A stretch of 5,423 bases of DNA, taken from positions 1 through 5,423 of the IMG/VR virus record IMGVR_UViG_2802429220_000009, one strand, 5' to 3'. The stretch comes from a virus. Lineage: Duplodnaviria > Heunggongvirae > Uroviricota > Caudoviricetes. The notes under the pieces were generated by a model, which saw only the letters and a list, made by a program, of their open reading frames with translations, had not been told where the DNA came from and ran no database searches. This document shows positions 481-5,423 of the stretch, one piece after another (position 1 is the first letter of the stretch; the number at the start of each line of letters is the position of its first letter). A program made the position numbers and the translations under genes.

Positions 481-637
481 AACGATAACTCCGTACATTT
501 GGACATTATCGCCACCGTCAGGTGCTAATCATCGTGGTGGCGAACTGTGCGGGGTTAGCACTACCGGGTACGGAAACCGGCGAGCCTTTCGGCTCCCCCA
601 CACAGCCCGCCATAAATCGCGAATGTGACTGTGCAAA

Positions 638-672
638 CGATATGAAAAAAGACGCGGGCGCGTCTCATATCG
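638..672 (-). terminator. Intrinsic terminator on the minus strand (GC hairpin plus U6), nested in an outer inverted repeat CGATATG/CATATCG
   Basis: Minus-strand RNA reads CGAUAUG-A-GACGCGCCCGCGUC-UUUUUU-CAUAUCG: a 5-bp GC-rich stem GACGC/GCGUC with a 4-nt loop, immediately followed by six U (plus-strand A6 at 645-650). Outer arms 638-644 and 666-672 are exact reverse complements. Confidence 0.5.
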
Positions 673-721
673 CTCCGTAAACATCCGGGGTGCTAATCCC
701 GACGCCAGATTTTGCTGGCGT
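645..721 (-). ncRNA. Candidate ~75-nt structured small transcript or leader (promoter to intrinsic terminator); function unknown
   Basis: Bounded by the minus-strand promoter at 728-757 and the terminator at 638-672. Predicted 5' hairpin CGCCAG-CAAAAU-CUGGCG (plus 703-720), an internal GGG/CCC stem, and the 3' terminator hairpin. No plausible ORF: the only ATG-initiated frame reads through the terminator. Confidence 0.3.
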
Positions 722-727
722 GCGAAG

Positions 728-757
728 AATATAATCCCGGATACGTGACGTTGTCAA
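728..757 (-). promoter_or_regulatory. Sigma70-like promoter on the minus strand (-35 TTGACA, 18-bp spacer, -10 TATATT)
   Basis: Reverse complement of 752-757 is a perfect TTGACA; reverse complement of 728-733 is TATATT (5 of 6 to TATAAT). Predicted start near 720, pointing at the terminator at 638-672 and the antirepressor-like gene beyond. A plus-strand TATAAT (730-735) overlaps it. Confidence 0.35.
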
Positions 758-767
758 ACTGATGGCA

Positions 768-796
768 TTGCAGATCCCTACACAATGTAATACTAT
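768..796 (+). promoter_or_regulatory. Putative promoter of the toxin-antitoxin operon (-35 TTGCAG, 17-bp spacer, -10 TACTAT), flanked by short inverted-repeat arms
   Basis: TTGCAG at 768-773 and TACTAT at 791-796 with a 17-bp spacer, about 30 nt upstream of the toxin ATG at 825. Inverted-repeat arms AATGTA (784-789) and TACATT (803-808) bracket the -10, as expected for an autoregulated TA operator. Confidence 0.4.
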
Positions 797-824
797 GTGT
801 TATACATTAATAACGGAACAAAAA

Positions 825-1196
825 ATGCGCATTTTTAAAAACGCCTGGTTTGAGCGATTTGCACGCAAAAACAAAATATCCGACCAGTCACTGCGCGAAA
901 TTGTTAAACAGGCTGATAACGGGCTTATCTCAGCAAACCTGGGTAACGGCGTTATCAAGCAACGTCTGCCACGAGTCGGTGGCGGCAAATCTGGCGGTTA
1001 TCGCACAATCATTTTCTATCGCGTCGGCACAAGGGCCTTTTTCGTATATGCATACGCAAAAAATGAACGTGAAAATATAACCGCTACTGAGGAAAGTGCA
1101 TTTCGGAAGGCGGCTCCTCACGTACTCAATCTAACAGATGAACAACTGGCACAACTGATTCTACAGGGTCAGTTTACGGAGGTACCCAATGAGTAA
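825..1196 (+). CDS. Type II toxin, RelE/ParE-superfamily (HigB-like, toxin-first operon), 123 aa
   Basis: Track ORF 762..1196 trimmed to the internal ATG at 825 (MRIFKNAWFERF...), because the predicted -10 lies inside the 5' extension. Contains the motif RVGGGKSGGYRTIIFYRVG, which I recall as typical of RelE/ParE-like toxins paired with HTH antitoxins. The stop TAA 1194-1196 overlaps the next gene's start in ATGAGTAA. Confidence 0.8.
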   Translation: MRIFKNAWFERFARKNKISDQSLREIVKQADNGLISANLGNGVIKQRLPRVGGGKSGGYRTIIFYRVGTRAFFVYAYAKNERENITATEESAFRKAAPHVLNLTDEQLAQLILQGQFTEVPNE

Positions 1197-1506
1197 AAAT
1201 TACCGCAGTGATGCGCTTGCATCCGTACATGAAATGATGGAATCGCTTCATGATATCGGCGCAGTAACGAAACAGACTATGCGAGAATTCGATGAAACTT
1301 GTCTCCAGCCAGCGCCGGTAATGTCTCCGGAAAGGATCCGTGCACTGCGCGAACGAGAGCATCTGTCTCAACCTGTTTTTGCCAGATACCTCAACGTCAG
1401 TAAAAACCTGATATCAGACTGGGAACGTGGTGTAAAACGGCCGGGAGGTGCCGCTCTTCGCCTTCTTTCAGTCGTAGAGAAAAACGGGATACAGGTAATA
1501 TCATGA
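1189..1506 (+). CDS. HTH (XRE-type) DNA-binding antitoxin of the type II TA pair, 105 aa
   Basis: ATG at 1189 with GGAGG 5 nt upstream; 8-nt overlap with the toxin gene. Helix-turn-helix signature in the C-terminal half (SQPVFARYLNVSKNLISDWERGVKRPGGAALRLL). Size and toxin-first order fit a HigA-like antitoxin. Confidence 0.85.
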   Translation: MSKNYRSDALASVHEMMESLHDIGAVTKQTMREFDETCLQPAPVMSPERIRALREREHLSQPVFARYLNVSKNLISDWERGVKRPGGAALRLLSVVEKNGIQVIS

Positions 1507-1522
1507 TACTCCAATACAACAA

Positions 1523-1540
1523 AACCCGCCGAAGCGGGTT
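1523..1540. terminator. Intrinsic terminator between the convergent TA operon and hok; U-tract on the minus strand (hok mRNA 3' end), weaker for the plus strand
   Basis: Stem AACCCGC/GCGGGTT with a 4-nt loop. On the minus strand the loop is the stable tetraloop UUCG and the stem is followed by UUUUGUUGUAUU; on the plus strand the loop is CGAA and no U-tract follows. Confidence 0.55.
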
Positions 1541-1608
1541 AAGTGCGGGTGCGTTGAGGATGCCTGACACATCAGAGGTGGCGAGGGATTTCTCCCTCGC
1601 CTGGTCTC

Positions 1609-1764
1609 TTACTCCTCAGGTTCGTAAGCTGTGAAGACAGTGACCTCCGTCTGGCCGGTTCGGATTCGTACCTCGCAGAGGTCTTTCCTCGTTACCAGTG
1701 CCGTCACAATGACGGTAATACAGATGACGATCAGGGCGACTAACATCGCCTTTTGCTGCTTCAT
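1609..1764 (-). CDS. hok: Hok/Gef-family type I membrane toxin, 51 aa
   Basis: Internal ATG of track ORF 1609..1821 at 1764..1762 with SD AAGGAGA 7 nt upstream. Product MKQQKAMLVALIVICITVIVTALVTRKDLCEVRIRTGQTEVTVFTAYEPEE is near-identical to E. coli HokD/HokC as I recall them (single transmembrane helix, conserved Cys). Confidence 0.9.
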   Translation of the reverse strand: MKQQKAMLVALIVICITVIVTALVTRKDLCEVRIRTGQTEVTVFTAYEPEE

Positions 1765-1821
1765 AGCCTGCTTCTCCTTGCCTTTCGGCGCGTAAGAGGC
1801 TAACCTACATGTGTCTAGCAT
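1609..1821 (-). CDS. mok: Mok-like in-frame N-terminally extended reading frame (70 aa) coupling hok translation
   Basis: ATG at 1821..1819 in frame with hok, adding MLDTCRLASYAPKGKEKQA; this resembles the MokC N-terminus as I recall it (MLNTCR...KEKRAMKQ). GAGG lies 8 nt upstream. Confidence 0.55.
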   Translation of the reverse strand: MLDTCRLASYAPKGKEKQAMKQQKAMLVALIVICITVIVTALVTRKDLCEVRIRTGQTEVTVFTAYEPEE

Positions 1822-1980
1822 AAAATTGGCCTCAGATTAATGTTAGGCGTCTTGCAGGACGCGTAATGTTAACTGGGGCTTTTCTCTGTCTGCCTTACGG
1901 TGGCATGCCCGAGGCAGACAGCCTCAAGCACCCGCAGCAATTCTACTTAACTCTCGCTTTACCGCAAACCGTTTTTACCC

Positions 1981-2000
1981 GATATGGGAATTCCCATATC
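1981..2000. repeat. Perfect 20-bp palindrome GATATGGGAATTCCCATATC (EcoRI core) between the small-peptide ORFs and the hok leader
   Basis: Positions 1981-1990 and 1991-2000 are exact reverse complements. No U-tract follows on either strand, so it is more likely an operator or RNA structure than a terminator. The flanking bases extend the arms to CGATATG/CATATCG, the same arms as the 638-672 element. Confidence 0.6.
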
Positions 2001-2009
2001 GTAATGAAT

Positions 2010-2114
2010 TCAGTTCCCTAGTCGATCCATCAAAAACACAACCAGGCAGTAAACGCCCACAACAGCAATAACAGCCAGCGCACCTTCCATTGCCAGTGAT
2101 ATATCATCCGACAT
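2010..2114 (-). CDS. Small hydrophobic peptide, 34 aa (predicted single transmembrane helix); function unknown
   Basis: ATG at 2114..2112 with a strong SD AAGGAGGG 4-5 nt upstream; stop TGA at 2012..2010. Product MSDDISLAMEGALAVIAVVGVYCLVVFLMDRLGN. Below the length cutoff of the supplied track. Confidence 0.45.
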   Translation of the reverse strand: MSDDISLAMEGALAVIAVVGVYCLVVFLMDRLGN

Positions 2115-2149
2115 ATTCCCTCCTTTGGTGTTAATCCCGGCGAACGTTT

Positions 2150-2233
2150 TTACCCCCACCGACAAATAACATATACTAAAAAAGCGATAGCCATAGCAAC
2201 GCCTGTAATTGCAAATGCTTCAGGCCAGTTCAT
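2150..2233 (-). CDS. Small hydrophobic peptide, 27 aa (predicted single transmembrane helix); translationally coupled to the upstream gene
   Basis: ATG at 2233..2231 overlaps the stop of the 194-aa gene in ATGA; SD AGGAGG 8 nt upstream. Product MNWPEAFAITGVAMAIAFLVYVICRWG, stop TAA at 2152..2150. Confidence 0.45.
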   Translation of the reverse strand: MNWPEAFAITGVAMAIAFLVYVICRWG

Positions 2234-2814
2234 TGGCGCACCTCCTGCGGCGGTTCTGGTAGCGGCATCCAGTCGGTTACATTGCGGCTCTGTGTTTCGA
2301 AAAATTCATCACCATCACGGACTACATCAAAAAACTCACCGTCTCGATATTGCGCATAAAGAACGAATGCGCCATCACATAAAATAATTACGTGCTGACC
2401 GTCATCCGGCATTCGCTCACTACAGCTTATCCAACCATCCAGAGTTACCGGATGGTTGGTTGACGTTTCCGAGATTTCCCGAAAATTATTGGTTGACGAA
2501 CCCTTCTTTTCCCGAAAGTTTCCAGCCTGAAGCATGGCGGCGCTGTCTGGCGGGGCAGCATATAGCGGCACGTATATTTCCGGTTCCTTATCAGCACCGG
2601 GTTGCTCTTCCAGTGAGAATGTCTTTCCGGTAAATCGATTCATATAAAGCACGGGCTCTGCTTCCAGCGAAGCCTGAGCAACAAGGGCCAGTGCTAAATC
2701 CAACTCAATTGCCTCGAGAGAATTTTTGAATGCTGTCTGTTTTACTGCAAATTTCATCGCCTTTACATTTTCACTAACATGACTGATTAACTGCTCTTTT
2801 GTAAAAGTGGTCAT
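2230..2814 (-). CDS. Hypothetical prophage protein with a DUF551-like C-terminal domain, 194 aa
   Basis: Track ORF 2230..2943 trimmed to the ATG at 2814 (MTTFTKEQ...), which has SD AAGGAG 7 nt upstream; the longer frame would overlap the preceding gene. C-terminus WISCSERMPDDGQHVIILCDGAFVLYAQYRDGEFFDVVRDG...VTDWMPLPEPP fits my recollection of DUF551. Confidence 0.8.
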   Translation of the reverse strand: MTTFTKEQLISHVSENVKAMKFAVKQTAFKNSLEAIELDLALALVAQASLEAEPVLYMNRFTGKTFSLEEQPGADKEPEIYVPLYAAPPDSAAMLQAGNFREKKGSSTNNFREISETSTNHPVTLDGWISCSERMPDDGQHVIILCDGAFVLYAQYRDGEFFDVVRDGDEFFETQSRNVTDWMPLPEPPQEVRQ

Positions 2815-2870
2815 CTCATTCTCCTTTGATGCGAATGCCAGCGACAATTGAAGCCTGATAGCTAATTCAC

Positions 2871-3263
2871 TCACAGTACCGCCTCCTGAAAATTCCCCTG
2901 ATAGAAAGCCAGCACACGCTGCATAACTTCGCTCTGGCGGCACTCACGACAAATTATGTTCTGCCGTCTGTTGTAACGACGTATTTCTCCGTCAGGTAAC
3001 TTTCGAATCAGTGTCGGGTCAGCAGCCTTCTCCGGTGTCTTACGCCATACGCGATACGCCTGCTCTGATGGAAATACCCCGCAATCAGAGAGCCAGACAT
3101 CACCACTGGCCGCAAGCGCACCAGATAAACGACGAATAGCGGTCTTACTGACACCCGTTTTATCTGCCAGTTGTCGAAAAGTTTCTCGTCCGCTCAGGCG
3201 CACGAATTCCACAATGCGCGCCTTCACTTCTTCCCGCTCTTCTGGTGTAAATACTTTTGCCAT
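2871..3263 (-). CDS. Hypothetical HTH-containing protein, 130 aa
   Basis: ATG at 3263 (MAKVFTPEER...) with SD GGAGG 5 nt upstream; the track's TTG start at 3278 is rejected. HTH-like segment ETFRQLADKTGVSKTAIRRLSGAL; a CxxC pair (CRECRQ) near the C-terminus. No family recognised. Confidence 0.7.
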   Translation of the reverse strand: MAKVFTPEEREEVKARIVEFVRLSGRETFRQLADKTGVSKTAIRRLSGALAASGDVWLSDCGVFPSEQAYRVWRKTPEKAADPTLIRKLPDGEIRRYNRRQNIICRECRQSEVMQRVLAFYQGNFQEAVL

Positions 3264-3278
3264 AAGCGCCTCCGGCAA

Positions 3279-4049
3279 TCACTTTTCCGATACAACACGG
3301 CGGGAAGAATCAGTAATCTGTCGAACAATATCCCGGTGCTTGTTCAGCTCCCGCAGCGCGGCACAGACACGCTCCCACTTCTGGACCTGTTTTTGGGCGC
3401 GACGAAGTTCTCGACTGGCAGCATGCAGCGATGGAAGCATCACCAAACTGGCAGATTTTTCGGTGAATGATGGAACTTCTCGGATAAACTCATCTGTACT
3501 GGCCTTTGCCGTGCTCTCTGATGCCAACGGAAAACGATTCATTTCATCGCCTGCCGCGCTGTTTTCTGCGTCATGGTGTGATTGCTTATTCTGCGATGAT
3601 AAAGCGCTCAAATCGCCGTTTTCGACATCAGGCATTTTGTAACGGAATTTTCCGTTGCTGATCTCGCGTACCAGGCGTCTCGTTGCTGTTACCACCGCCA
3701 ACGTGGAAGCAACCTTACGAGTGCTGACACCGAACTTCCCCGCAAGTTCCTCACACGTTTTAGCCCCATCCTGACCGATAAACTCAATCATCATGTCTGC
3801 GGTAACTTTTGGAGCGACCTCTTCGGTTACCACATCCGGCGCTTCAGGTTGTAGTGCCTGCCCTTCGGTTACCCCGGCTTCACCTTCGACAGCCAGAAAC
3901 CAGGTGTGACCCGTTTTATCAACAACGCCATTTTTTTTGAGCTCCCACAGTTCGTTGAGAACTTCTTCACGGCTGATATCAAGCCGCGCCGCCAGTTCAA
4001 CAGAATTGGCTTTTCCCATCGCTTTCAGTGCATGCAGTACGGTTTCCAT
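3279..4049 (-). CDS. Hypothetical protein with two tandem helix-turn-helix-like segments, 256 aa
   Basis: ATG at 4049, 25 nt after the DnaC-like stop, GAGG upstream. Two HTH-like segments (NSVELAARLDISREEVLNELWELKKNGVV and KTCEELAGKFGVSTRKVASTLAVV) followed by a charged, probably helical C-terminus. No catalytic motif recognised. Confidence 0.75.
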   Translation of the reverse strand: METVLHALKAMGKANSVELAARLDISREEVLNELWELKKNGVVDKTGHTWFLAVEGEAGVTEGQALQPEAPDVVTEEVAPKVTADMMIEFIGQDGAKTCEELAGKFGVSTRKVASTLAVVTATRRLVREISNGKFRYKMPDVENGDLSALSSQNKQSHHDAENSAAGDEMNRFPLASESTAKASTDEFIREVPSFTEKSASLVMLPSLHAASRELRRAQKQVQKWERVCAALRELNKHRDIVRQITDSSRRVVSEK

Positions 4050-4074
4050 CGAAAATTTACCTCGTCAAAAATTC

Positions 4075-4815
4075 TCACATACCCTGACGCCCAACGTTTG
4101 ATCGCCAGCTCTCCCAGTTAAAATTCACCCAACGACCACCGTTCATGGTCATACGGTCCATCACCCGCTCGCCGAGGAGTGTGCTCATCGCTGCGTGATT
4201 CAGGTTCGTCAGCATCCCGACACTGCGCAGTGATGCCGTCCGGCGGTCAACAATCTGGTGCAGTACCACCTGCTCGTTTTTCGTCTCACGCTGGATGCCA
4301 ATTTCGTCAAGAACCAGGAGGTCCACTTCGCACAGTTCACGCAAAAATTTTTCCCCTGACAGTCCGTCGTCATAGCTGGCATGTAACGCGCTCATCACAT
4401 CCGCCACGGTGACCACTATCACGGATTTACCGGCATTCAGCAGACGATTACCCACAGCCGCCGCCAGATGATTTTTTCCGGTTCCCGGATTCCCGCTGAA
4501 CACGAAGTTTGTATAACCGGTCATCAATTCATCGGCAATGGATTTCGCCTGGCTCAGAGCATGGCGCTGACCGTCGTTCTGCACCCGGTAGTTCCCGAAT
4601 GAGCACTTCCTGTGAAGCGGCTGGATGCCCGCACGGTTCAGGATTTTTTCAACCCGCGCCTGATGATTCAGGCGGTTAATTTCCTCGCTGCGCTTACGGC
4701 CCTCAGCCAGTTGCCATTCCCGCCATTCGTCGGTCGTCCGGAACGGTGCTGCCACGTGCGGTGGTGCCAGACGGCGCACCCGTTCAAGAATCCCTCCTGT
4801 CGAAATGTTTTTCAT
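4075..4815 (-). CDS. DnaC-like replicative helicase loader (phage P-analog, AAA+ ATPase), 246 aa
   Basis: Strong resemblance to E. coli DnaC as I recall it: MKN... N-terminus, CSFGNYRV, Walker A GNPGTGKNHLAAAVG, Walker B LLVLDEIG, then GMLTNLN and LGERVMDRM. SD GGGGG upstream of the ATG at 4815. Confidence 0.92.
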   Translation of the reverse strand: MKNISTGGILERVRRLAPPHVAAPFRTTDEWREWQLAEGRKRSEEINRLNHQARVEKILNRAGIQPLHRKCSFGNYRVQNDGQRHALSQAKSIADELMTGYTNFVFSGNPGTGKNHLAAAVGNRLLNAGKSVIVVTVADVMSALHASYDDGLSGEKFLRELCEVDLLVLDEIGIQRETKNEQVVLHQIVDRRTASLRSVGMLTNLNHAAMSTLLGERVMDRMTMNGGRWVNFNWESWRSNVGRQGM

Positions 4816-4821
4816 GGCTGA

Positions 4822-5423
4822 TTACCCCCTGAAACCCGGCGGAATTTCGGTGTCCGGTTCAGAAATGTGATTCACGCAACGCAGGCTGACTGCGCCAGCC
4901 TTCGGCAGCGACCACGGATTTTCGAAATTCCTGTTCGGGCCAAAAAACGTCGATGCCTGCTGAACAAATTCAGTTCCCGCTTTCCCGGTAGCCTCCAGGT
5001 ATCTTGCGTAACGCCTCACGCCATCCAGCACGACATCCGGTGACACCCCTTCGCGTAATCTGGCCCTCCAGGCATTGAACGCGGATTTCTTCGGGTTTGA
5101 CCCTGCCCGATGCGGATATTCACGCCAGACCCGTTCGAACACGTCAGGATAATCAACTCGTCCCGCAGACGGTCCCGGCATCGCCCGGGTTAACCCAATC
5201 GGCTTCCCGCTCATCGCGGAATCGGCTTCAGGCTGCTGCGGTTGGCGTTGTTGCTCCGGTTCGACGATCAGCACCTGCTGCACACAACGCCCGGAATCTG
5301 CTTCCGGTGTCGTGCCAGCTGGTCCTGGACGTTCAGTCAGAACAGGACAAAAATCCCCCCGTGGGTCCGTGGCGATTTTTTCGCCATGGACCAGAAGGGT
5401 TTTATCCCTTTCCTGTTCTTGTT
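4822..5423 (-). CDS. Phage replication-initiation protein (O/DnaT-like partner of the DnaC-like loader), 3' part; N-terminus beyond the window
   Basis: Frame is open from the window edge (5423) to stop TAA at 4824..4822, so the track's GTG start at 5283 is internal. Sits 6 nt upstream of the DnaC-like gene, the usual initiator-loader arrangement. Product assignment rests on position and a Gln/Pro-rich linker, not a recognised motif. Confidence 0.65.
   Translation of the reverse strand, partial: QEQERDKTLLVHGEKIATDPRGDFCPVLTERPGPAGTTPEADSGRCVQQVLIVEPEQQRQPQQPEADSAMSGKPIGLTRAMPGPSAGRVDYPDVFERVWREYPHRAGSNPKKSAFNAWRARLREGVSPDVVLDGVRRYARYLEATGKAGTEFVQQASTFFGPNRNFENPWSLPKAGAVSLRCVNHISEPDTEIPPGFRG

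Follow-up and report, generated by a model that had tools for sequence, protein, structure and literature searches.

INTRODUCTION

The Ren protein of phage lambda lets the phage escape Rex-dependent exclusion, and its gene, located directly downstream of P, is dispensable for replication. A two-hybrid assay showed Ren to interact with the Rex proteins, and the protein has been called 'likely involved in DNA replication' (bioRxiv 10.1101/2021.04.19.439022). The LygF protein of phage mEp460 is encoded directly after the replication gene, as ren is in lambda, and between the lambda replication genes and Q lies the nin region with its variable cargo. Within the Rac prophage of Escherichia coli K-12, the gene following the DnaC-like ydaV is ydaW (b1361), encoding a member of the DUF1627 family of 186 aa and joined to rzpR by the Rac deletion. 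YdaW is listed among the predicted E. coli transcription factors (PMC9308461), and ydaW came out of an over-expression screen as a blocker of RcaT, the toxin of retron-Sen2, as a screen hit obtained with the truncated K-12 protein (bioRxiv 10.1101/2020.06.22.160242). Finally, DUF551 has been described as a portable domain present in Ea22 V2 and YfdS (PMC10834534).

Here we analyzed a stretch of 5423 nt of Caudoviricetes DNA, from here on called the window, which contains one DUF1627, one DUF977/LygF and one DUF551 gene. The original prediction had regarded these three genes, together with two small downstream peptides, as a candidate accessory module of DNA-binding-like proteins in the slot of the variable nin-region cargo. 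The explanation that we came to favor instead, with a probability of roughly one half, is that the block consists of two winged-helix proteins in the position of lambda ren, here termed the 'ren slot', next to an unrelated acidic cargo protein.

RESULTS

Gene content of the block

As seen from the open reading frame list and the sequence, the interval 2230-4049 was exactly filled by three minus-strand genes, each with its own Shine-Dalgarno sequence upstream and separated by 25 nt (loader gene to 256-aa gene), then 15 nt and then 56 nt (Table 1), so that the tight packing and the lengths of 256, 130 and 194 aa were as had been predicted. The mechanical list placed the start of the DUF977 gene at a TTG at 3278, while the RefSeq annotation has the 130-aa form; for DUF551, a GTG-extended version of 237 aa is not the annotated form. 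The O-like initiator gene has a full length of 1083 bp as annotated in NZ_CM149872. At the other end, the hok/mok gene was found at 1821-1609 (Pfam HOK_GEF, 2.9e-22) and sok at 1759-1933 (Rfam, 115 bits), with NinB, RusA, NinH and Q further along in the best-matching genome. Promoter and terminator scans gave no promoter-like or terminator-like sites above background inside the block. Neither operator-like repeats nor promoters turned up within it or next to it when promoters and repeats were scanned for, and the sole tandem repeat was located inside the DUF551 gene.

Table 1. Features of the window, with positions counted from its first nucleotide
Feature	Position	Strand	Remarks
O-like replication initiator gene, 3' part	4822..5423	-	Runs off the window; PHROG 3729 (8.5e-74)
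DnaC-like helicase-loader gene	4075..4815	-	Directly upstream of the block; Pfam IstB_IS21 (1.1e-19), PHROG 50 (1.4e-80)
DUF1627/YdaW-family gene, 256 aa	3279..4049	-	ATG with GAGGT upstream; Pfam PF07789, PHROG 630
Recombination patch	2960..3320	.	Sliding-window identity against contig L004
DUF977/LygF gene, 130 aa	2871..3263	-	ATG six bases past GGAGG; Pfam PF06163, PHROG 142
DUF551 gene, 194 aa, acidic	2230..2814	-	ATG after AAGGAG; Pfam PF04448, PHROG 60
27-aa hydrophobic peptide MNWPEAFAITGVAMAIAFLVYVICRWG	2150..2233	-	GGAGG upstream; ATG overlaps the DUF551 stop (ATGA)
34-aa hydrophobic peptide MSDDISLAMEGALAVIAVVGVYCLVVFLMDRLGN	2010..2114	-	After AAGGAGGG; RefSeq: hypothetical protein
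hok/mok toxin gene and sok antisense RNA region	1609..1933	-	Distal end of the variable segment

Pfam and PHROG assigned all three genes to catalogued families. The DUF1627 protein matched its Pfam model at 1.4e-47 (161.8 bits, gathering cut-off 28.1) and PHROG 630 end to end at 4.6e-113; the DUF977 protein covered positions 1-134 of the 134 in its Pfam profile (3.5e-41, 140.8 bits, cut-off 22.1) and matched PHROG 142 at 7.9e-43; and the DUF551 protein covered positions 1-68 of 68 (1.3e-20, 74.4 bits, cut-off 22) and matched PHROG 60 at 7.2e-44. A very large number of E. coli and Shigella genomes encoded near-identical copies of the proteins. Judged by these profile matches, the three genes, previously taken for uncharacterized accessory genes, are ordinary members of catalogued and already known E. 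coli prophage families, and we consider their identity and organization as given here very probably correct. To that extent the result is routine annotation; most E. coli genomes contain genes of these DUF families.

Relation to YdaW and Ren

The DUF1627 protein showed 54% identity to K-12 YdaW over 140 aa (4e-46), a likeness spanning both winged-helix domains. In contrast to the K-12 protein, which is without the conserved C-terminal helix, the protein of the window is full-length.

By profile and motif comparison, the DUF977 protein is a homologue of lambda Ren. Ren matched PHROG 142 at 1.6e-41, direct comparison of the two proteins gave 3e-8 with BLASTP and 94% probability (E 1.3e-7) with hhalign, and they have in common the motif ECRQSxxMxRVLAxY as well as a basic pI (9.9 for Ren, 9.7 for the DUF977 protein). 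The homology is remote, the identity being 28%, and most of it comes from the C-terminal motif; lambda Ren was not detected by the Pfam DUF977 model. Compared with Ren, the DUF977 protein is 34 residues longer and has an insert after the winged helix and ahead of the C-terminal motif.

Position after the helicase loader

We compared the locus with the 80 closest of 596 viral contigs, mostly from Escherichia isolates, whose counts hence are not those of an unbiased sample. The DUF1627 gene directly followed the helicase-loader gene in 66 of 66 such contigs, the loader being DnaC-like in 50 and lambda-P-like in the other 16, and the DUF977 start was found at most 60 bp from the DUF1627 stop in 66 of 75. 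Scanning a genome collection with a 14-sequence alignment, we obtained 12 loci of other species, from Escherichia albertii, E. ruysiae, Citrobacter, Serratia, Salmonella, Enterobacter and Raoultella. In nine of these, the gene immediately before DUF1627 encoded a loader (DnaC-like or lambda-P-like) or a Ren-like protein; in the remaining three, DUF1627 was located downstream of the replication genes. The Citrobacter and Raoultella loci instead had the gene for a small winged-helix protein resembling Ren just upstream of DUF1627 (PHROG 142, 7e-14 and 2.5e-6), with the Ren-like gene of Citrobacter directly after the DnaC-like gene. The arrangement in the window differs from that in lambda by having the DUF1627 gene between the loader and the Ren homologue.

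Being fixed next to the loader across genera, the DUF1627 and DUF977 genes do not belong to the variable nin cargo. They are constant occupants of the slot after the helicase loader, which is the position of lambda ren, and lie upstream of the variable part, so that the earlier placement of all three genes in the nin-region cargo slot did not hold for the first two. At the end of the replication module, whatever the initiator or loader, lambdoid prophages of Enterobacterales retain a small winged-helix protein, or two of them (Ren, LygF or YdaW). Among 50 697 phage records, 12 had both DUF1627 and DUF977, 12 had DUF1627 only and 12 DUF977 only; since each occurs alone in half of the records having it, the two need not act together.

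The constant neighborhood of DUF1627 and the loader could also be taken to mean that both proteins are strict replication accessory factors that bind origin DNA or a replication protein (the O-like initiator, the loader or DnaB), modulate helicase loading and have no role in anti-exclusion. In favor of this are also the two-hybrid signal of Ren in an assay set that included O, and its designation as likely involved in replication (bioRxiv 10.1101/2021.04.19.439022). The dispensability of lambda ren for replication speaks against this, as does the fact that DUF1627 follows two unrelated loader types and different initiators, a pattern not expected if its partner were one particular loader or initiator. 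Many lambdoid phages furthermore replicate with neither gene, each being present in only 24 of the 50 697 records. We regard a purely replicative role as rather unlikely.

Comparison of the block among related prophages

The three genes and the two peptides had been proposed to travel as a unit, for instance as an anti-phage defense or host-manipulation cassette carried as nin cargo. The tight packing on one strand with separate Shine-Dalgarno sequences would agree with this, as would the toxin-antitoxin loci next door and the uptake of cargo by this neighborhood in relatives. Synteny, however, gave a different picture. Among 5426 complete E. coli genomes, only 50 contained 80% or more of the block without interruption, with 3523 matching some part of it, and DUF551 adjoined DUF977 in only 17 of 56 contigs. 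Moreover, the allele identities were anti-correlated, with DUF1627 at 98% going together with DUF977 at 68% and DUF1627 at 67% with DUF977 at 97%, and the DUF977 alleles did not co-vary with the adjacent DUF1627 or replication alleles. Contig L004 had about 100% identity to the window over 1521-5423 except for the recombination patch, where identity fell to 43-87%. The patch corresponds to the stretch of the DUF977 gene that encodes the winged helix, and in the window was 98% identical to contigs L035, L081 and L046, whose DUF1627 proteins were only 67-71% identical to that of the window. The DUF977 allele has hence been swapped independently of its neighbors, within an otherwise identical backbone, and the swapping has its center at the DUF977 recognition helix.

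Searches for defense genes likewise gave no backing for such a cassette. With PADLOC-DB 2.0, the three proteins and two peptides matched no defense-system model beyond generic HTH noise, the best matches being those of HTH segments to the winged helices of CARF, Csa3 and CasR (best 3.2e-5 over 46 residues), and the DUF551 protein matched nothing; no family of NCBIfam or PADLOC scored above cut-off. With the first two genes also being fixed next to the loader across genera, we find a single co-inherited cassette highly improbable. The three genes are not one co-inherited accessory module, and the 'module' breaks up on comparison into two unrelated things adjacent by chance in this prophage.

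That cargo downstream of the replication genes is variable, as had been supposed, was evident in the relatives, which at this location had DUF4406, a methyltransferase, the Paa adhesin or a STAND-like NTPase. The segment that varies among prophages is flanked by the ren slot and hok/sok; it contains also Ead/Ea22-like proteins and antirepressors, and resembles the lambda nin region.

Folds and conserved features of the two winged-helix proteins

In the AlphaFold model of the DUF1627 protein, a first winged helix (residues 1-46) was followed by a linker, a second winged helix (80-140), another linker and a C-terminal helix (208-255). Both linkers were acidic and disordered, whereas winged helix 2 and the C-terminal helix were basic, with pI values of 9.9 and 11.2, respectively. 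Pfam HTH models also matched both winged helices. Winged helix 1 was nearly invariant, with a Glu-rich recognition helix, and alignment showed that the layout, including an IPSFT motif and the basic C-terminal helix, was kept in members of the family down to 19-30% identity. The basic DUF977 protein (pI 9.7) was modeled with one N-terminal winged helix, having pLDDT >90 for residues 11-70, and had a conserved C-terminal motif, PDGEIRRY...NIICRECRxSxxMQRVLAFY. Its most variable block, comprising residues 41-50, was the recognition helix as located by alignment and model. These findings, together with the Pfam assignments, bear out the domain guesses of the original prediction, i.e. two HTH-like segments in the first protein, an HTH in the second and a DUF551-like C-terminus in the third.

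The 130-aa protein had also been described as having a CxxC motif. One such pair was indeed present (C105 and C108), with a third cysteine, C61, being Tyr in most relatives. We rejected a four-ligand zinc site, for which two CxxC or CxxH pairs are usual, as only this one pair was present and the residue of lambda Ren aligned with C105 is a Phe. Neither do we claim the two winged-helix proteins to be paralogues, as profile comparison linked winged helix 2 of DUF1627 to the winged helix of DUF977 only weakly, at 40% probability.

Fold searches with the DUF1627 and DUF977 models in the PDB, and with the DUF977 model in BFVD, yielded nothing but generic winged helices (E >0.001), the best being of MarR, IclR, GntR and Z-alpha type, and at the sequence level none of the three proteins had a meaningful match in the PDB. 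No enzyme fold was seen in the DUF1627 and DUF977 models, which consisted of winged helices, disordered acidic linkers and a basic helix only, in agreement with the earlier statement that no enzymatic motif could be recognized.

One could propose that the two proteins are sequence-specific transcription regulators that bind phage or host operators and tune the lysis-lysogeny decision or the downstream early genes, with the variable DUF977 recognition helix setting allele-specific targets. The MarR, IclR, GntR and ArsR folds found as nearest neighbors, the basic character of the DUF977 protein and of winged helix 2 and the C-terminal helix of DUF1627, the peak of DUF977 variability at the recognition helix and the listing of YdaW as a predicted transcription factor (PMC9308461) are all compatible with such a function. 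Winged helices are, however, also protein-binding modules, and the fold match therefore proves little. The negative outcome of the scans for operator-like repeats and promoters, both within the block and next to it, the lack of co-variation between DUF977 alleles and their neighbors, and the near-invariant, Glu-rich winged helix 1 of DUF1627 also stand against regulation, which we accordingly judge improbable.

The DUF551 protein and the small hydrophobic peptides

The third gene is variable cargo that travels with two tiny membrane peptides and hok/sok. The 27-aa peptide was encoded directly after a DUF551 domain in 29 of 31 loci, with 16 of its 45 matches being without a detectable DUF551 domain; in 29 of 44 loci, the 34-aa peptide came after the 27-aa peptide at a distance of no more than 80 nt; and hok came next after the 34-aa peptide in 28 of 28. 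The protein itself was 100% identical to P0241, present on at least 1000 contigs, and the 120 homologues listed were all 97-100% identical.

The DUF551 domain is C-terminal, at about residues 126-194, and follows a swappable N-terminal part, as seen from different N-termini on the same C-terminus among relatives. It is this portable C-terminal domain that the protein has in common with YfdS of CPS-53 and the Ea22 V2 variant of Stx phages (PMC10834534; PMC4776307), and it is acidic as are the Ea22 C-terminal domains (PMC10834534). The N-terminal parts and the genomic position nevertheless differ, the gene of the window being located in the early-right operon before hok and not in the b-region or early-left operon, and the yfdS phenotypes (H2O2 sensitivity and membership of a DnaA-inhibiting gene set) are not transferable to the protein studied here. 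With a pI of 4.6, and 4.05 for the domain alone, the protein had no sign of DNA binding, so that the description of the block as encoding DNA-binding-like proteins was fitting for the first two genes and not for this one. Most likely it is an accessory factor of the Ead/Ea22 type that binds protein and not DNA. Matches to polyubiquitin were dismissed as chance, being sums of about 7-bit matches over the ubiquitin repeats; a single ubiquitin gave E 0.2-0.8, with the ubiquitin helix region absent from the alignment.

A possible function in the ren slot

With regards to the two winged-helix proteins of our preferred reading, their genes are the last of the early-right replication segment, follow the loader gene directly and have no promoter or terminator between them and it, and both proteins would be made together with the replication proteins. 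They may then be non-enzymatic binding adaptors acting as Ren is thought to, in which a basic winged helix and a basic C-terminal helix would bind nucleic acid or a partner, and the invariant, acidic winged helix 1 of DUF1627 would bind a conserved protein partner. In this manner they could keep resident exclusion or abortive-infection systems from aborting phage development, which would not make them a defense system for the host. We propose this anti-exclusion mechanism tentatively, and hold it to be possible rather than probable; it counts against it that the variable recognition helix of the DUF977 protein would suit a DNA-binding regulator with sequence specificity just as well. The link to Ren, with its escape from Rex, and the screen result for ydaW against a retron toxin make it directly testable.

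More speculative, and in our opinion unlikely, is that YdaW-type and Ren-type proteins constitute a widespread counter-defense pair, made along with the replication proteins and neutralizing replication-sensing abortive-infection systems such as Rex-like systems and retron toxins. An arms race with different resident exclusion systems would then have left its mark in the hypervariable recognition helix of the Ren-type protein.

Three common prophage genes behind the replication module

The window comes from a lambdoid prophage of E. coli. Its best match was the chromosome of an E. coli from pig faeces (L001, 98.4% identity), where cI/cro/cII-like genes flank the region on one side and ninH, rusA and Q on the other. 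The three genes that the original prediction had joined with two small peptides into a candidate accessory module are present as described, both as open reading frames and as the same coding sequences annotated by RefSeq in the best-matching genome, with gaps of 25 nt between the loader and DUF1627 genes, 15 nt between DUF1627 and DUF977, and 56 nt between DUF977 and DUF551. Next, 3′ of the DUF551 gene, come a 27-aa hydrophobic peptide, the ATG of which overlaps the DUF551 stop, a 34-aa hydrophobic peptide and hok/sok. Rfam gave no RNA family within 2230-4049.

Table. Replication genes and the three following genes in the window, with the parts of the AlphaFold model of the 256-aa protein.
Feature	Position	Strand	Remark
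O-like initiator gene, 3′ part		minus	upstream of loader gene
DnaC-like helicase-loader gene	4815-4075	minus	upstream of the three genes
DUF1627 gene, 256 aa	4049-3279	minus	
DUF977 gene, 130 aa	3263-2871	minus	GGAGG six bases before ATG
DUF551 gene, 194 aa	2814-2230	minus	AAGGAG before ATG
256-aa model, winged helix	residues 1-46		
256-aa model, disordered	residues 47-79		
256-aa model, winged helix	residues 80-140		
256-aa model, disordered	residues 144-204		
256-aa model, long helix	residues 208-255		

The 256-aa protein was assigned to DUF1627 (PF07789, 1.4e-47; PHROG 630, 4.6e-113), the 130-aa protein to DUF977 (PF06163, 3.5e-41; PHROG 142 'Ren-like exclusion protein', 7.9e-43) and the C-terminal part of the 194-aa protein to DUF551 (PF04448, 1.3e-20), with NCBIfam and PADLOC searches adding weak generic HTH matches and nothing further. 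The closest clusters found were 97% identical for DUF1627 (160 members) and 95% for DUF977 (746 members), and the DUF551 protein was identical to a sequence on at least 1000 contigs. All three are common prophage proteins of known, catalogued families. Pfam, PHROG and RefSeq bore out the predicted genes and domains; the HMM searches placed the proteins in ordinary conserved families, and a defence function found no signature.

DUF1627 is a narrow family, with 153 clusters at 50% identity among 1.84 billion representatives, and its layout was retained down to 19-30% identity. YdaW of the K-12 Rac prophage, encoded after the DnaC-like ydaV gene, is a truncated member, its first 140 residues being 54% identical to the 256-aa protein (4e-46). 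Comparing the 130-aa protein with lambda Ren (sequence from NC_001416), we obtained a BLASTP match at 3e-8 with the C-terminal motif ECRQSxxMxRVLAxY common to both; Ren itself matched PHROG 142 at 1.6e-41, and a DUF977 profile matched Ren with 94% probability (E 1.3e-7). The relationship is thus real but remote, since the Pfam DUF977 model gave no match when run on Ren.

The DUF1627 and DUF977 genes share a reading frame, with TGA plus 15 nt between them (window 3263-3281). P0122, a database protein of 204 aa, bears both the PF07789 and PF06163 signatures, and is therefore probably a read-through or fused variant of the two.

DUF1627 and DUF977 occupy the lambda ren slot

For synteny, every window protein was mapped on 80 viral contigs, chosen as those nearest to the DUF1627 protein. 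A DnaC-like gene ended <120 nt before DUF1627 in 50 of the 66 loci with enough upstream sequence, and a lambda-P-like gene (25% identical to lambda P, E 5e-7) took that place in the other 16. DUF977 started ≤60 bp from the DUF1627 stop in 66/75 loci, being replaced by a different small HTH protein in nine. Twelve loci came from other species, including Escherichia albertii, E. ruysiae, Citrobacter braakii, Serratia, Salmonella, Enterobacter mori and Raoultella; nine of these had DUF1627 directly after a loader gene of DnaC-like or lambda-P-like type or after a Ren-like gene, and in the remaining three it lay downstream of the replication genes. DUF977 came after DUF1627 in E. albertii, and a small Ren-like winged-helix protein came before it in Citrobacter and Raoultella (PHROG 142 at 7e-14 and 2.5e-6). 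Among 50,697 deposited phage records, DUF1627 and DUF977 were found in 24 each, together in 12 (always 18-46 nt apart) and each alone in 12. Phage mEp460 has LygF directly after its replication gene, as lambda has ren in a like position, and between the replication genes and DUF1627/DUF977 no signal resembling a promoter or terminator rose above background. The pair is thus a fixture at the end of the replication module, in the lambda ren slot, and not variable nin-region cargo as had been proposed.

After DUF1627, PPompW prophages carry a small hypothetical gene and then the Paa adhesin. In a Rac-like prophage of E. ruysiae (L086), DUF1627 is directly followed, in the cargo slot, by the gene for a 689-aa P-loop protein (6004-8073) with ORC/CDC6-like, nSTAND3 and AAA_16 matches, a candidate defence gene. 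PP818812.1 (Actinobacillus phage vB_Apl-pPE4, deposited for Actinobacillus pleuropneumoniae) holds at 10072-16200 E. coli-prophage-like DNA 92% identical to parts of the window, including DUF1627 and hok, which suggests either that the transfer was very recent or that the host was mis-assigned.

DUF551 belongs to the variable cargo

A DUF551 domain adjoined DUF977 in 17 of 56 loci, lay 1-4 kb beyond it in 7 and escaped detection in 32. The 27-aa peptide directly followed the domain in 29/31 cases, the 34-aa peptide followed the 27-aa peptide in 29/44, and hok followed the 34-aa peptide in 28/28. Between DUF977 and this distal group we found unrelated cargo: DUF4406, methyltransferase, Ead/Ea22-like and zinc-ribbon proteins, and antirepressors. 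DUF551 is a portable domain, present in Ea22 V2 and YfdS, and over-expression of yfdS gives stress and DnaA-related phenotypes (PMC10834534, PMC4776307). The DUF551 gene belongs to the variable cargo, and what it really goes with is the pair of small peptides and hok/sok. The proposed block therefore joins two different things, a ren-slot pair and a cargo gene, and the co-inheritance of all three genes and the peptides as one module is refuted by independent shuffling. Of 5426 complete E. coli genomes, 3523 matched some part of the block and only 50 had ≥80% of it in one place.

The DUF551 gene contains a 33-nt tandem duplication (window 2456-2520, copies 75% identical), encoding NFREKKGSSTN and NFREISETSTN in the linker ahead of the domain. 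Residues 45-125 (window 2440-2682, minus) have a weak colinear similarity to ubiquitin (TGKTxxLE...PPD...AG), which we judged to be chance: single ubiquitin gave E 0.2-0.8, the helix region is absent, and polyubiquitin scores to 1e-20 were sums of many ~7-bit repeat matches.

Allele exchange, predicted structure and a possible Ren-like role

Allele identities were anti-correlated among contigs, DUF1627 at 92-98% going with DUF977 at 67-68%, and DUF977 at 95-100% with DUF1627 at 65-71%. Against contig L004 the window was ~100% identical over 1521-5423 except for a patch at ~2960-3320 (43-87%), exactly the part encoding the DUF977 winged helix; this patch was 98% identical to contigs having the DUF1627 protein at 67-71% and differing flanking genes. 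Against the best-matching genome, ~100% identity was broken by a 60-82% patch at 4244-4540, mid DnaC-like gene, probably a second intragenic recombination patch.

The 256-aa protein was modelled with AlphaFold from a 43-sequence alignment (mean pLDDT 63.5; folded parts 72-89). In the 130-aa model (mean 78.5) the winged helix was confident, with residues 11-70 above 90, and the C-terminal half was of low confidence, with a motif helix at 112-121. Fold searches of both returned generic MarR, ArsR, IclR, GntR, ScpB and Z-alpha winged helices, every E >0.001, and no enzyme fold; that the two are transcription regulators is a live alternative. The first DUF1627 winged helix is slightly acidic and nearly invariant across alleles, the second (pI 9.9) and the C-terminal helix (pI 11.2) are basic, and the linkers acidic. 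DUF977 (pI 9.7) and Ren (pI 9.9) are both basic. Winged helices are predicted in two of the three proteins labelled 'DNA-binding-like'; for the DUF551 protein, which is acidic (pI 4.6; domain alone 4.05), the label has no support. The 'HTH plus CxxC' of the 130-aa protein stands as a winged helix, the CxxC being a lone pair whose first Cys is Phe in Ren.

Rex excludes lambda ren mutants, and ren is dispensable for lambda replication. We commit, on indirect support, to a Ren-like anti-exclusion role, in which the DUF1627 and DUF977 proteins would be winged-helix adaptors without enzymatic activity, made together with the replication proteins and shielding phage development from resident systems of exclusion or abortive infection. 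This reading draws on the homology of DUF977 to Ren, and on variability peaking in the recognition helix (residues 41-50) next to a conserved motif (conservation peak at residues 91-120), which suggests changing targets. It draws further on two-hybrid contacts of Ren with Rex proteins (bioRxiv 10.1101/2021.04.19.439022) and on an over-expression screen in which ydaW blocked the retron-Sen2 toxin (bioRxiv 10.1101/2020.06.22.160242). The former study also called ren likely involved in replication, and a role as replication accessory factors in the strict sense is a second live rival; however, the same proteins follow two unrelated loader types, which speaks against a loader-specific function. 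That winged-helix proteins of the Ren/YdaW type accompany lambdoid replication modules almost universally offers a testable lead.

Other elements of the window

At 533-734 (minus), Rfam identified a C4 antisense RNA (533-617, 78 bits), an IsrK Hfq-binding sRNA (645-721, 73.5 bits) and a c4 a1/b1 target element (682-734), which together resemble an antisense control region of the P1/P7 type, whose presumed targets are the antirepressor genes located next in the best-matching genome. Two genes at 762-1506 (plus), for a RelE-family toxin (PF06296, 3e-46) and, downstream of it, an HTH antitoxin, overlap in HigB/HigA-like order and converge on the early operon; the toxin matches in contigs L004-L008 and L045 are split into two or three pieces, suggesting frameshifted copies. 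At 1519-1600 (minus) a second, weak IsrK-like match, which at 27.8 bits falls short of the gathering score, overlaps the sole good terminator-like hairpin of the region (1540-1523), just after hok.
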